Assembly (NCBI GenBank): GCA_963796275.1
Contig: CAWCKY010000006.1
Span: forward strand, 2,688,001-2,752,000
Direction: 5' to 3'
DNA from: an uncultured Acidobacteriota bacterium
Lineage (GTDB): Bacteria; Acidobacteriota; Blastocatellia; RBC074
Length of the DNA stretch: 64,000 bases
The notes under the pieces are model-generated. The model saw only the letters and a program-made list of their open reading frames with translations. It had not been told where the DNA came from and ran no database searches. Shown piece by piece: positions 13,750 through 34,695 of this stretch (positions are counted from its first letter, which is position 1; every line of letters starts with the position of its first letter). The translations under genes were made by a program, and so were the position numbers.

Positions 13750-13802
13750 TTTATCAAATTTTTATAGATCGTTTATCACTTTTATACGGCCCGTGCTAGC
13801 CT
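13750..13802 (+). promoter_or_regulatory. Putative KdpE box A plus -10 element
   Basis: TTTAT at 13750, 13761, 13772 and 13781, then 11 nt, then TAGCCT (13797-13802). Same architecture as boxes B-D. Confidence 0.7.
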
Positions 13803-13850
13803 GAAAAGGTGACTCCCGCTTATAGTCATCAGAGCGCGGTTCCGTTTGAA

Positions 13851-14129
13851 ATGACTGGACGCGGCACAAAAGTGGCGGCGGCCCTTGTCAGGCTTTCTTC
13901 CACCTCCTTGTTGAGGGCGCTGACGGTCGACCTTAATGATCTCACTTCGACAGCTTACGAGATCGGCAGCATCACCGAGCAGGTGAGCGGCGACTGCATT
14001 GAATCGGTTCTTGGTAGAGAGAAACTTCCCGGCTGGTTCTTGGTGTTCGGCAGGTCAATTGTCCGGTCTGTCCTGGCCATCGGCTGCGTCATCTCGATGA
14101 GTTTTTCTCGAAACAAAATAACAAAATAG
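13851..14129 (+). pseudogene. Diverged N-terminal fragment of an acidobacterial-type APC permease
   Basis: TKVAAALVRLSSTSLLRALTVDLNDLTSTAYEIGSITEQVSG resembles the recalled TM1 region of kdp-linked APC permeases (LSFISFWRAAAIVLNDLASSAYYAGGIAEQAIG). Memory-based comparison. Confidence 0.45.
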
Positions 14130-14135
14130 ACAGTT

Positions 14136-16103
14136 ATGGTCGAATCAACAATTTCGGAAAAGAGGTCTTTCAGCTCATTCAAGCAATGGTTATTAAAAGG
14201 TCAAGTTGAAGAGGTGGAAGGTCCGTACAAACGGGAGAGGAGTTCCCACAAGCACACCTGGTGGCAAGTCATGTGTTTAACCGGGGTCGATTATTTCTCG
14301 ACCCTCGGATATCAGCCGGGCATCGCCTTTCTGGCTGCCGGCGCCCTTTCTCCTATCGCGACTCTGATTCTCGTGCTCTTGACGCTCTTCGGAGCATTGC
14401 CGATTTACCGGCGTGTGGCGCAGGAGAGCCCGCACGGCGAGGGGTCGATCTCGATGCTCGAAGACCTGCTTCCCCGCTGGCGTGGCAAACTATTCGTGCT
14501 GGTTTTGCTGGGATTCGTCGCGACAGATTTCGTCATCACGATCACGCTTTCGGCGGCGGACGCGACCGCGCACGTGATCGAAAACCCGCTCGTCCCACAT
14601 TTTCTGCACAATCATCGGGTGGCGGTAACGCTCCTGCTGGTTGCCATCCTGGGCGGTATCTTTCTGAAGGGATTTAAGGAAGCGATTGGACTGGCGGTCT
14701 TACTGGTCGCCATCTATCTCCTGCTCAACTTAGTGGTGGTTGGCGTTGGACTTTATCAAATTCTGACTCATCCTCAAGTGCTCTCTGCCTGGAAGGAGGC
14801 GGTGTTTCAAATGCCCAAGGTCCATGGCAATCCGTTCCTGGCAGTGGCCGTCTCGTTATTGTTATTTCCCAAACTGGCCCTCGGTCTTTCCGGATTCGAG
14901 ACCGGGGTCGCTGTCATGCCTTTGGTCAAAGGCGATGTCCATGATGATCCCAAAAAACCTGCCGGCCGCATCCGCAATACTCATCGATTATTGCTGACCG
15001 CGGCTCTGATTATGAGCTTGATGCTGATCGCCAGCAGTCTGGTGACGACCATGCTGATCCCACCCGAGTTGTTTCAACCGGCGATTGGTGGTCGCCCGGC
15101 GGGAGATGCCAACGGGCGCGCGTTGGCCTATTTGGCTCATCTATATCTGGGGGAAGCCTTCGGCACGATCTATGATTTGAGCACGATTGCGATCTTATGG
15201 TTTGCCGGCGCTTCGGCTATGGCCGGCCTGCTCAATATCGTGCCGCGTTATCTGCCGCGCTATGGGATGGCCCCGGATTGGGCGCGAGCGACCAGACCTT
15301 TGGTCTTCGTCTTCACAGCCATTGCTTTTGCGGTGACCGTCATTTTTAAGGCCGATGTCGATGCGCAGGGAGGGGCATACGCGACCGGCGTGTTGGTGTT
15401 GATGACCTCTGCCGCCATCGCGGTGACGCTCTCCGTCTGGCGAGAGGGTGCGATCAGATGGGTCTTCTTATCGATCACTATTGTCTTCGGCTATACGACG
15501 ATTGCAAATATTATCGAGCGGCCGGAAGGCATCAAAGTGGCGGCCTTCTTTATCGGAGCTATTATCATTACTTCATTCGGTTCGCGAGCTCTGCGCTCAA
15601 CCGAGTTGCGCGTCGAGAGAGTCGAATTGAACCCCTCCGCCAAAGAATATATCGATGAAGCCAAGAAAGGCACCATCAGGATCATCGCCAACCGTCCTGA
15701 TCGCGGCGACCTAGATGAGTACCGCTTGAAAGAGAAGCAGGAGCGCTGGAACAACCACATCCCGGCCGACGACCCGGTGCTGTTCTTCGAGGTTAGGCCG
15801 GGGGATGCTTCGGATTTCTCCGATGTGCTCAGAGTGCGGGGGGTACAGATCGGGCCATACCGCATCTTACGCACAAAAAGCCCGGCCGTGCCGAACGCCA
15901 TCGCCGCCTTCCTGCTGCATGTTCGCGATGGGACGGAACAAATTCCACACGTCTATTTTGGTTGGACGGAAGGCAATCCATTCTGGTACGTGCTGAAATT
16001 CATCTTTTTCGGCGAAGGCGATACGGCTCCAGTCACACACGAAATTCTGCGACAGGGGGAGCCTGAGCCATCCCGGCGTCCGGCAGTCCATGTCGGCGGA
16101 TGA
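14136..16103 (+). CDS. APC-superfamily transporter, KimA/KUP-like probable K+ transporter
   Basis: About 12 TM segments; TM1 DYFSTLGY (D-x6-Y), TM3 TDFVIT, TM6 SGFE, TM10 AYATGV; soluble C-terminal domain. Confidence 0.8.
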
Positions 16104-16486
16104 GCAGCAGGTTCCGGTTCTATAACAGATTCGCAGGCGCGGGATCCAATTTCGGGACGATTGTTGACGCTGAGCTGATAGAGTTGTTTATTGCTCCAAT
16201 ATCGGCGCCGGGAGAGTGTGTGAGCCGAGGCGACCTCGGAGAAGGGAAGAAATAGCTATATGGACTCCTATTCAAACATCCAGGCTGCACATCGCGATAG
16301 GGAGAGAGGGAGATACAAGCTTCCGGCGCTGAGGGCAGCGCTCAGGGGAAGATTGTTCAATGGACTCATTACGGATGAGATGGCTGCGAAAGAACTTCTC
16401 AATTCCGACTGAAGTTCTTATGTGCAAAGTTTGACGCACATAACTCAACCCGGCGTCTGCTGCGGAAGATCGACAAGAAACGCCCG

Positions 16487-32215: not shown

Positions 32216-32551
32216 TTTGTCCCATGGTCCCGGCACTTTTCCGCCGAGACGATATTATTGTAGCCCCCACAAGACTCAACCGGTAGCGATTCGAATCTGT
32301 GATGTTGTGTAGGCAATAGGGCATCTGCTGACCCCCTTGCTCGCAGGACCACGTGCTACCTCCCGCTACCGGTCAGGATTCAAGCCGGAGCGTCTTTGGT
32401 CGGTGCGGTTGCCGGCGTTCTCAGAACAATTTCGAAATGGATTCACTCAATGCAATACATGTGATTCCGCGCTGATTATGTATGAAGATAGTCAGATGGA
32501 GTCGCGAATCGTTTCAGATTGACATATGACGGAAGTCGGCCGAAACAATTT

Positions 32552-33247
32552 TTATGCCCCCGGATCGAAGCGGTAACCAGTCCAGGGTTCGGTGAGAACA
32601 TAGCGAGGATGGGCAGGATCAGGTTCGATCTTCTTGCGTAAGTGGCCGACAAAGACGCGCAGATATTCGTTCTGCTCGACATAGTCGCCTCCCCAGATAG
32701 CGCCGAGCAGTACCCTATGACTCAGCACTTTATTTGGGTGGCGAATAAGATAGAGCAACAATTCGTATTCTTTGGGTGTCAGGTGGACCTCTTGCCCCTG
32801 CACGGTCACGTTACGGGTCTGGATATCTACGCGAAAGTCTCCCACTTCAATCGACCGCTCTTCGGGGCCGGCCAACTGAGGTCGCCGAAGGACCACCCGC
32901 ACACGCGCCAGCAGTTCATCCATGCCGAAAGGTTTGGTCACATAGTCGTCAGCCCCGGCGTCCAGGGCCTCAACCTTGATTCGTTCTTCGCCCTTAGCCG
33001 AGAGTACGATAATCGGGACTGAAGAGATGGCTCTCAATCGCCGGCAGAGTTCAAGCCCGCTCATATTCTGCATAACGAGGTCGGTCACGACGACATCGGG
33101 TTTCCAGACGTCGAAAGCAGAAAGCGCTTCTTCGCCCTCAAATGCCACCTGCACGTCATAACCGTGGCTCGATAGGCCGCGCCGCAGTACGCGTGTGATC
33201 TGAGGCTCGTCATCGACCACGAGAATCCGTCGCCCTTCATTCGTCAT
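32552..33247 (-). CDS. kdpE: OmpR-family response regulator KdpE
   Basis: [31 protein letters not shown] and [27 protein letters not shown] motifs; overlaps the upstream kinase gene. Confidence 0.92.
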
Positions 33248-34523
33248 GTTCCCTCCAGGTATTGAATCCATAAGTGATATCTTCTGCTTGCGAATCGATC
33301 CCGCCTACCGCATTCTCCACTGTAGCGGGGTGCTCTTCGTCTCCGATCGGCAAGGTGAAGACCACGCGTACGCCATACCCTCGTGAGCCATCTTCTATCC
33401 AAATGTTTCCGCCGTGGGCATCAACGATGCCACGGGCGATGGCCAGCCCCATTCCGATTCCAGATGGGCGGTTTAGCGCAGCTGCATAATCGGGCGTGGC
33501 GCGGAAGAACTTATCGAAGACGCGCTTCCGCAGATGCTGCGGGATCCCCCACCCCTCGTCTTCGACGGCGATCTGAACCATCTCGTCAGACGCCCGGCTC
33601 GCGTTGATTCTGATGCGTGTACCGGGAGGCGCATATTTGGTCGCATTGTCGATCAGCAGGTAGACGACTTCGGTCACCGCGCGCGCATCGATCTGCACCA
33701 GCGGCAAATCGTTTTCTACCTCAACCACTACTCGATGCTGCTGTACGAGCGGTTCAGCGCGGTCGAGGGCCATTGAGATGATCTCATCGACGGCCCCCCA
33801 CCTTCGTCGCAAATGAAGGTCTCCGGCTTCGATCCGCGCCAGCTCAACCATGCCTTCGATGAAGCGGTTGAGCCGATCAGCTTCTTCGTCTATCACTTCT
33901 AACATCTCCTGCCGCCCTTCTTCGTCGAGTTTGACGGGAGGTTCTCCGTCCCACTTTGCGCGCCGCTCTTTGAGAAGAGTCGTGACCGATGCCTTGATCG
34001 AAGTGAGCGGCGTGCGCAGGTCGTGTGTGACTGCGTCGAGCAGCGCCGACTTCAACTGTTCGCTTCGCCGCAACGCCTCGGCATGACTCGCTCGCTCGAA
34101 TGCCGCTTGCAGTTCGTGATAGAGCCGTTCGATCTGCTGGCGCCCGCCCTCGGCCTCCTCTGCGCGGCGTTTAGCCCGCGCTGAAAGTTGCCCGACGGTG
34201 ACCGCAGTTACGAGGAATGCGAAGAGCGCAACCCAGTTCTGCGAATCGGCGATCGTTAAGGTATAGAGAGGGGGGAGGAAAAAGTAGTTGAAGCACAGCA
34301 TCCCAAGCAACGAGGCGAGATAGGCTGGCCGACTGCCCCAGCCGGTCGCGATGAAGAGCACTGCCAGTAGTAATGAGAAGGCCACCGTCGTCGAGTTGAT
34401 TTGCTCTTGAAACGGCGCAAAACAGGCCGTGACGCCTGCAACACTCAACGCAGCGAAAAAGTATCCGGCTGCTCTATTCTGAAAGATAATGGTTGACATG
34501 CTCTCTTCAAGCCATCTGACCAT
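33237..34523 (-). CDS. kdpD: KdpD C-terminal module: DUF4118 4-TM + HisKA + HATPase
   Basis: [26 protein letters not shown]; intact H-box [24 protein letters not shown] and GIGMGLAI. No KdpD, Usp or GAF domain. Confidence 0.88.
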
Positions 34524-34640
34524 CTACCGCTATCATGCTTCTGAATGACCCTTCAATTCGGAGCACTGTCATCGTGGCAGTTATCCTCTGCAGACCCATG
34601 ACAGTGAGCAACCGTCGATAATGAATTCAGCGACTGTTTT

Positions 34641-34695
34641 AGACTAACCACAAAGCCATAAAAATAGCGTAAAAGATCTATAAATAATTCGTAAG
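34641..34695 (-). promoter_or_regulatory. Putative KdpE box D plus -10 (autoregulation of kdpD'E)
   Basis: (A/G)TAA(A/G) at 34658, 34669, 34680 and 34691; TAGTCT 11 nt downstream on the minus strand. Confidence 0.78.

Follow-up and report, generated by a model that had tools for sequence, protein, structure and literature searches.

Two described systems lie closest to the locus analysed here. In the kdpFABC-kdpDE system of Escherichia coli, the subunits KdpF, KdpA, KdpB and KdpC are encoded with KdpD and the OmpR-type response regulator KdpE, whose site has TTTATA and TTTACA half-sites separated by a 5-bp spacer (PMC3264566). The N-terminal domain of KdpD alone phosphorylates KdpB at Ser162 (Silberberg et al. 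2024, PMC11018627), and the same paper lists, as the commonest split form of KdpD, a KdpD/Usp chain with a separate kinase made up of transmembrane (TM), GAF and DHp-CA (histidine phosphotransfer and catalytic) parts, a class to which the short KdpD of Deinococcus geothermalis belongs. Here we describe a kdp locus at positions 13750-34695 of a 64,000-nt stretch of DNA (the window: GCA_963796275.1, contig CAWCKY010000006.1, 2,688,001-2,752,000) from an uncultured member of the Acidobacteriota with a 9.46 Mb assembly in 7 contigs. An earlier, sequence-only reading took it for an undescribed system under a three-part sensor. The split-KdpD part of that sensor is already known, the combination of a KdpD/Usp chain with a separate TM/DHp-CA kinase being a published class (PMC11018627), and by its genes the locus appears to be a new variant of a known system rather than a new kind, with most of it typical of the phylum.

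We think it probable, if by no means certain, that this is the single Kdp potassium (K+) uptake locus of a large soil acidobacterium, in a phylum-typical form with a few lineage-specific additions. At low K+, the DUF4118 histidine kinase would phosphorylate KdpE, as homology suggests, and KdpE would then bind a box in which four TTTAY half-sites recur every 11 bp and whose end is separated from a TAnnnT hexamer by 9-11 nt. Binding would activate the kinase-kdpE pair, a transporter with the fold of KimA, and an ~11.5-kb operon (TM116/29-aa peptide/kdpF/kdpA/kdpB/porin 1/kdpC/CBS/kdpD-N/His-less kinase), which would have a second promoter copy upstream of its own. K+ would pass the outer membrane through BBP2 porins and the inner membrane through KdpFABC and the secondary transporter, whose substrate would also be K+. 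The soluble KdpD-N/Usp protein, judged from its E. coli and Deinococcus homologues, would be a serine kinase that switches KdpB off, and we propose that a His-less kinase homologue, with its periplasmic four-helix-bundle sensor, intact ATP-binding domain and Usp-like tail, and a CBS protein feed signals into this KdpB-switching step rather than into phosphotransfer. Both the induction by low K+ and the protein-protein contacts among the locus products are what we infer from this arrangement.

Proteins were assigned by Pfam and NCBIfam profile scans, which found the genes listed by the sequence-only reading at the positions it had given, the open frames of kdpA and kdpB excepted. The gene string runs on the minus strand, with a single plus-strand gene, for a 655-aa membrane protein, at its left end. 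All four Kdp subunits are encoded together: KdpF (PF09604; 27085-27174), KdpA (PF03814; ~25158-26989), KdpB (E1-E2 ATPase; ~23066-25124, with a readable TGES motif) and KdpC (PF02669; 20845-21441), the KdpA and KdpB matches coming in pieces. In 20 relatives' loci, collected around kdpC, the common order is DUF4118 kinase, KdpE, a porin 2 orthologue (in 7), kdpAB, kdpC and KdpD-N; an ~610-aa orthologue of the 866-aa His-less kinase follows KdpD-N in nine of them and, as a contig-end fragment, in L047. The extra small membrane peptides of the earlier reading are real features of such loci as well: the conserved 29-aa single-helix peptide (27185-27274, no library family) stands just upstream of kdpF in 15/20, and the 116-aa membrane protein TM116 (27506-27856), first gene past box S2 here, is present in 8/20 (E < 0.001). 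The CBS gene, the 655-aa gene and a porin placed between kdpB and kdpC were each absent from all of these kdp loci (0/20). The expected synteny was thus present for one set of components, kept beside kdp, and absent for another. The core conserved among relatives consists of the DUF4118 kinase, KdpE, the KdpE-type box, a BBP2 porin, kdpFABC and soluble KdpD-N/Usp, in many cases joined by the His-less kinase; the features seen only here or in few relatives are the second porin, the CBS protein, the Usp-like tail of the pseudokinase and a KimA-fold transporter under its own box. One unpublished genome (G004) is counted in the tallies of the transporter family, the 116-aa protein and the CBS protein, and no conclusion depends on it.

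This division invites the reading that only a core (kinase, KdpE, box, porin 2, kdpFABC and KdpD-N) is functional, and that porin 1, the CBS protein, a VWA protein, the His-less kinase and the transporter are accidental neighbours without a K+ role, which we consider unlikely. In its favour, the VWA gene (31103-32236), probably a passenger, is a member of a large acidobacterial paralogue family (TIGR03436). Against it, a single dense string of same-strand genes includes porin 1, the kinase homologue and the CBS gene, its members overlapping once by 4 nt and otherwise lying 3-140 nt apart. The evidence on the remaining genes is given with each of them below.

KdpE-type boxes

The claim that four promoters of the locus share one motif held. 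The pattern TTTAY-N6-TTTAY-N6-TTTAY-N6-TTTAY, with up to 2 mismatches, gives 5 overlapping matches in the window, at 4 distinct sites, versus 0 in 100 shuffles. Each site consists of four TTTAY half-sites at 11-bp spacing and is followed, 9-11 nt on, by TAGCCT, TAGCAT, TAGCTT or TAGTCT, a -10-like hexamer with the consensus TAnnnT. Site S1 (13750-13787, plus strand, with TAGCCT) lies on the transporter side; S2 (27989-28026, minus strand) would be the promoter of the long kdp operon, with a second copy, S3 (28546-28583, minus strand), 560 bp upstream; and S4 (34658-34695, minus strand) lies upstream of the kinase-kdpE pair. Genome-wide, at the same tolerance, there are 11 matches, six of them closely alike, and four of these six good copies are in the locus; one of the others is on contig C1 after a second DUF4118 kinase/regulator pair and one on C2 ahead of a receiver-domain open reading frame (ORF). 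The box was found in 15/20 relatives' loci, and wherever its position was checked it separates kdpE, which it immediately follows, from the porin or kdpF. Among the 80 loci of the porin clade described below, 25 have it upstream of the porin at a distance of no more than 1.3 kb. Because the half-sites and their spacing match the E. coli KdpE site, the motif is best read as a putative doubled KdpE box, with four half-sites where E. coli has two. The idea of a co-regulated module is strengthened accordingly by one specific box before four transcription units in the window, and by the same box after kdpE and before porin/kdpFABC in relatives.

The box could also be something other than a K+-starvation signal, namely part of a broader osmotic-stress regulon under the paralogous C1 regulator, with kdp as one target among others. 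What recommends this view is the C1 site itself (L200, G000 C1:248894-255797), at which a DUF4118 kinase/OmpR-type regulator pair is followed directly by a perfect copy of the box and then by genes for a 489-aa protein without Pfam match, a GT1 glycosyltransferase and a GDE_N_bis / mannosylglycerate-hydrolase-like enzyme, genes that may form a compatible-solute branch of the same regulon. The C1 kinase is 64% and the C1 regulator 70% identical to their counterparts in the window, and the recognition-helix regions of the C1 regulator and KdpE are near-identical; because of this identity and the near-identical recognition region, the two regulators may cross-talk over the boxes. Even so, in relatives the box immediately follows kdpE at the kdp genes, the locus described here accounts for four of the six good genomic copies, and half-site sequence and spacing agree with the E. 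coli KdpE site (PMC3264566), so that we hold an osmotic regulon to be very unlikely and retain a K+-starvation box as the preferred reading.

The C1 pair and its potential cross-talk nevertheless weigh against the model as we have drawn it, and so do the surroundings of porin 2. No box lies upstream of this gene within 2 mismatches, the gene itself being upstream of S3 and S2, and a sigma-70-like consensus match there is no better than chance; because of the missing box, co-induction of porin 2 is not supported in the window, unlike in relatives, in which the box precedes the porin. A consensus scan for promoters and terminators returned counts at or below shuffle expectation. The C2 copy of the box (L201, C2:724464-724588), which precedes the receiver-domain ORF and a gene for a 657-aa protein without Pfam match, shares 82% identity with window positions 27907-28031 (S2), the similarity reaching into the leader, ~70 nt beyond the -10-like hexamer.

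Porins beside kdp and beside ammonium transporters

K+ is usually assumed to cross the outer membrane through general porins, and PhoE is a porin induced according to its substrate. The two outer-membrane beta-barrels of the sequence-only reading, one of them within the operon, are both BBP2 (OmpL-like) porins that match PF07642 over their full length (259 and 231 bits; cut-off 26.2 bits): porin 1 (21445-22929) sits between kdpB and kdpC, and porin 2 (28824-30422) belongs to a clade of kdp-linked porins. A profile of kdp-linked porins retrieved 80 loci of this clade, which span Blastocatellia, Pyrinomonadaceae, Terriglobia, Bryobacteraceae and others. Kdp genes were found in 71/80, a proportion that applies to this clade and not to BBP2 porins at large: kdpA comes within 1.5 kb after the porin in 58, the porin comes after kdpC in 11, and kdp is placed elsewhere in the locus in 2. 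Of the 9 loci in which kdp was not seen, 3 end within 400 nt of the porin. A link between outer-membrane porin and kdp is supported for the clade of porin 2. A literature search for a kdp-encoded or kdp-linked porin found no paper, and one for BBP2 found only the observation that a BBP2 porin of the anammox bacterium Kuenenia stuttgartiensis is strongly induced by ammonium limitation (PMC7438415). The clade shares with that porin and with PhoE the arrangement of an outer-membrane channel encoded or induced together with an inner-membrane uptake system for a scarce ion, and differs from both in that the partner in the locus is the Kdp ATPase. The persistence of these porins beside kdp in several acidobacterial classes, preceded by the same box, suggests that passage through the outer membrane can be limiting in K+-poor soils, and we regard the clade, whose sister porins adjoin ammonium transporters, as the most testable novelty of the locus.

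Porin 1 belongs with those sister porins. It is most similar to a paralogue on contig C3 (86% identical) that adjoins an ammonium transporter (Amt) gene, the nucleotide identity of 89.6% being limited to the ORF, and its orthologues in two further genomes (G017 and G015) also adjoin Amt. When a phylum-wide sample was queried with porin 1, 14 of the 29 BBP2 loci obtained flank Amt and 5 flank kdp structural genes; two unpublished genomes (G087 and G184) are counted among the genomes searched for porin 1 matches, one locus (L062, of G087) is among the 14 next to Amt, and no conclusion depends on them. Porin 1 is a copy from the Amt-linked clade, placed by this genome inside its kdp operon, and the gene neighbourhoods pair the BBP2 family with uptake systems for two similarly sized ions, NH4+ and K+. 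The same affinities, to Amt and not to kdp, favour porin 1 as an accidental neighbour; a porin after kdpC in the 11 loci mentioned above, and in L084, speaks against that.

In the C3 cluster (C3:1103968-1114400), the paralogue of porin 1 comes directly after the ammonium transporter gene, itself after a 920-aa ORF and a 454-aa ORF, for which we guess a GlnE/GlnD-like and a glutamate-synthase-like product; were this right, the cluster would serve nitrogen scavenging and bring an outer-membrane porin of its own. Just past the stop codon of porin 2, a stretch of 117 nt (28682-28798) without an Rfam match is 81% identical to C1:255476-255590 on the opposite strand and may be a short repeat or a structured element.

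KdpD-N, the His-less kinase and the CBS protein

The CBS protein, the soluble KdpD-Usp chain and the DUF4118 kinase with its KdpE were all confirmed by profile matches. KdpD-N (19084-20208) carries PF02702 (7e-92) and PF00582, with no membrane or kinase part on the chain. Its best NCBIfam match is NF038185, 'KdpD-like non-kinase potassium sensor', at 431.5 bits, under the model's 550-bit cut-off. Like the E. coli protein, it has a Walker A motif (GAAAGVGKT) and a Usp motif, RIGSR-X8-WYAVY, of the E. coli type RXXXR-X8-WXAVY as defined in PMC4686210. The DUF4118 kinase (33237-34523), corresponding to the membrane and kinase half of KdpD, reads DUF4118-HisKA-HATPase_c, has a normal H-box (THDLRTPL) and is adjacent to kdpE (32552-33271); no GAF domain was detected in it by Pfam. 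With the split class of PMC11018627 the locus thus shares a separate KdpD/Usp chain, a separate kinase and KdpE. It differs in the lack of a detected GAF domain, in a Usp motif that is not of the cyclic di-AMP (c-di-AMP) type, and in a third, His-less kinase-like protein, which is present in many lineages and unmentioned in the sections of that paper on split forms, the supplementary per-phylum tables of which may list an acidobacterial form. Compared with E. coli, KdpD is divided into two proteins, and porins, small peptides, the CBS protein and the His-less kinase lie within the operon. The c-di-AMP-binding motif SXS-X20-FTAXY (Staphylococcus aureus type, PMC4686210) was not found in the Usp domain; because the motif there is of the E. 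coli type, the published c-di-AMP input is not supported for KdpD-N, a further point against our model. The genome encodes a diadenylate cyclase. Rfam scans (E up to 1) and tRNA scans of positions 12000-36000 gave no match, a c-di-AMP riboswitch included.

The kinase homologue of 866 aa (16487-19087, minus strand) has the domains 4HB_MCP-HAMP-PAS-HisKA-HATPase, with two predicted membrane helices flanking the periplasmic four-helix-bundle domain, and a Usp-like C-terminal extension encoded at 16487-17260. Its H-box, SEQLEEP, aligns with SHELRAPL of a relative's protein (G002) and with THDLRTPL of the DUF4118 kinase, and the phospho-acceptor His is missing; its catalytic domain is intact (HATPase_c 1e-28; boxes DNAQRS, DTGRGI, IFHRF and GSGLGL). 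Among 16 distinct kdp-linked orthologues, obtained by counting once the loci L123, L127 and L132, which repeat G005, G006 and G037, the His is kept in 4 and replaced in 12 (E, E, Q, S, A, N, F, R, S, T, G, S). It is lacking in 21/21 readable metagenome proteins of the same kinase-plus-Usp architecture, so the designation as a pseudokinase stands. A conserved His ~17 residues past the H-box was considered as an alternative phospho-acceptor and dropped, four fused homologues having Tyr there. DivL-type pseudo-histidine kinases have likewise replaced the phospho-acceptor His and kept the kinase fold, which implies a regulatory rather than a phosphotransfer role. The 866-aa protein resembles them in this respect; its family is set apart by a 4HB-HAMP-PAS arrangement, with or without Usp, and by E, Q, S, A, N, F, R, T or G as the replacing residue. 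A His position so free to vary could be that of a decaying gene, as expected of an accidental neighbour. Countering this, the ATP-binding motifs (read in the window protein) are kept, as are the sensor domains in at least 16 lineages.

The C-terminal extension, of ~250 residues, was found in two architectures only, these kinases and ~750-aa AA_permease_2 permeases, one of which sits after a KdpE-type box in G037. Its structural model (mean predicted local distance difference test, pLDDT, 85.2) shows a Usp-like alpha/beta domain plus helices, and its Foldseek matches include universal stress proteins, the Usp domain of KdpD (7ji4) and cation-chloride cotransporters in their C-terminal domains (E ~1e-3, probability 0.98-1.00). 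BLASTP of this tail against the 655-aa transporter gave no similarity; the tail matches a different APC permease family.

For the CBS gene (20291-20830), no homologue was found in 40 relatives (0/40), as one would expect if it had no K+ role. In metagenomes the protein forms 79 clusters with an invariant C-terminal DETxSFY, and the gene stands directly before kdpD-N in 3/3 contigs, in two of them after kdpC or a kdpA-like gene; that this pairing holds in three independent metagenome loci, down to 59% identity, speaks against a chance neighbour. A complex prediction for KdpD-N and the CBS protein scored 0.22, with the mark at 0.32, and speaks neither for nor against binding. The kdpA-like gene just mentioned (L119:575-2281) is 47% identical to relatives' KdpA and is preceded by kdpC and followed by the CBS gene and kdpD-N; L167, L177 and L197 likewise show a KdpA match past kdpC, and such genes may provide a second KdpA-type channel subunit in some operons.

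A post-translational control unit of KdpD-N, His-less kinase and CBS protein is the most speculative part of our model. In its fullest form the idea would be one of K+ scavenging at two membranes: the Kdp-dedicated BBP2 clade would be a starvation-induced, monovalent-cation-selective channel, sister to the Amt-linked porins, and the His-less kinase, reading the periplasm with its four-helix bundle, would control the KdpD-N serine kinase on KdpB together with the CBS protein. We regard this combined scheme as quite unlikely. If it is true, periplasmic K+ sensing lost when KdpD split would be replaced by the unit of His-less kinase, CBS protein and KdpD-N. The serine-kinase work (PMC11018627) leaves K+ sensing open where the Usp domain lacks the c-di-AMP motif, and a repeatedly His-less kinase beside the KdpD-N serine kinase offers a handle on K+ sensing in split systems.

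The KimA-fold transporter and the kdpA and kdpB frames

The plus-strand gene at the left end (14136-16103) encodes a 655-aa LeuT-fold transporter with a cytosolic C-terminal domain, which the sequence-only reading called KimA-like. At the level of fold the name is apt. Its AlphaFold model (pLDDT 88.5) has as top three Foldseek matches structures of KimA (8b70, 8b71 and 6s3k; E = 6e-14 to 4e-11, with 8b70 best at 6e-14), with a TM-score of 0.59-0.64 on the KimA target, ahead of cation-chloride and amino-acid transporters, and the sequence match to KimA is weak (E = 5e-4). KimA, a KUP family K+/H+ symporter of Bacillus subtilis (6s3k, 8b70), is matched over both the membrane and the cytosolic domains, and its residues D117, T121 and S125, the roles of which are described in PMC6994465, align with D131, T135 and S139 of the transporter. 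The two differ in that the transporter has 14-15% identity to KimA, falls in no Pfam family and belongs to a separate family of >4000 representative clusters, often in tandem. A profile search of this family against the sequences of the Protein Data Bank gave no match, its N-terminal part having only chance-level matches to serotonin transporters.

Several findings count against a K+ transporter in the kdp regulon. No Pfam family, K_trans and AA_permease included, and no NCBIfam family matched the protein; of the K+-site and coupling residues of KimA, D36, Y43, E233 and Y377 were aligned by no tool, D52 and Y59 of the transporter being spaced as D36 and Y43 without such an alignment. The family occurs in 35/41 genomes searched, on contigs other than that of kdp wherever both were located, which also suits the reading of the gene as an accidental neighbour, and a box was found upstream of the transporter gene in 2/30 loci, those of the window and G034. 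Set against chance proximity are the perfect-grade box that this gene has to itself and its recurrence in G034, and the transporter gene stands beside kdp boxes in two further genomes (L128 and L130).

Between S1 and this gene lies a 106-aa ORF (13809-14129, plus strand), of which 13842-14093 are 40% identical to the N-terminus of an AA_permease_2 permease of a relative (G021). This APC permease, of the type that shares the C-terminal extension of the His-less kinase, survives in the window only as this N-terminal remnant, directly after S1 and immediately before the 655-aa gene. Just left of S1, on the same strand as the transporter, an AraC-family regulator gene (12514-13440) showed no link to kdp.

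The earlier reading's kdpFAB and kdpC are present with a qualification: KdpC and KdpF are intact, and kdpA and kdpB, interrupted many times in the assembly, are not open frames. By tblastn with relatives' proteins and six-frame reading, 5 frame segments are needed for kdpA and 5 for kdpB, and DNA alignment with the intact genes of three relatives (G002, G020 and G021) places ~30 frame-breaking events between 26949 and 23208, nearly all of them +1 or +2 insertions, mostly of a single base and outside homopolymer runs. Yet the genes otherwise evolve as intact ones do. Window-specific substitutions in kdpAB are distributed over codon positions 1:2:3 as 31:23:111, and as 42:17:170, 56:29:113 and 46:31:100 in the three intact relatives; the total for the window (165) is not raised over theirs (229, 198 and 177), and pairwise identity between the window and the relatives, 80-81%, is the same as among the relatives. 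Because substitutions concentrate at third positions and their total is not raised, kdpA and kdpB have been under purifying selection until now. Frame errors are common in this assembly, because 5 of its ~14 RND pump genes are split into 2-4 adjacent pieces (contigs C2, C3 and C6). Most likely, the breaks arose as errors in the consensus of a long-read assembly and do not reflect gene decay.

Were the breaks genuine, the Kdp pump would be dead, with kdpA and kdpB true pseudogenes, the locus a regulatory and porin remnant, and the KimA-fold transporter taking over K+ uptake. This would account for ~30 breaks limited to two genes, the sole kdpA of the 9.46 Mb genome among them, for a secondary transporter recruited under the same box, and for an extra gene inserted between kdpB and kdpC. 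There are also direct difficulties for the explanation by sequencing error: kdpF, porin 1 and kdpC are clean, so that the insertions are confined to kdpA and kdpB, and their density, ~7.5 per kb, is ~40x the rough 0.2 per kb of the RND genes, both odd for random assembly error. None of the 24 listed public sequencing runs had >0.09 of the sampled words, and no RNA run had the stretch. A dead pump is nonetheless very improbable to our minds, as its genes retain the third-position bias with no excess of substitutions over relatives; kdpF, kdpC and kdpD-N are all intact, their aligned parts sharing 79-86% identity with those of relatives; insertions nearly all at non-repetitive sites have the look of long-read error and not of the mixed changes of decay; and RND genes of the same assembly are likewise split. 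Errors in the consensus over a working kdpAB remain the explanation that we prefer. Where insertion errors cluster locally, a long-read assembly can make a sound gene look like a pseudogene, and a codon-position test is able to distinguish the two. Overlapping same-strand ORF pairs at window positions 3177-5403 and 5970-8088 are possible further cases of frame error.

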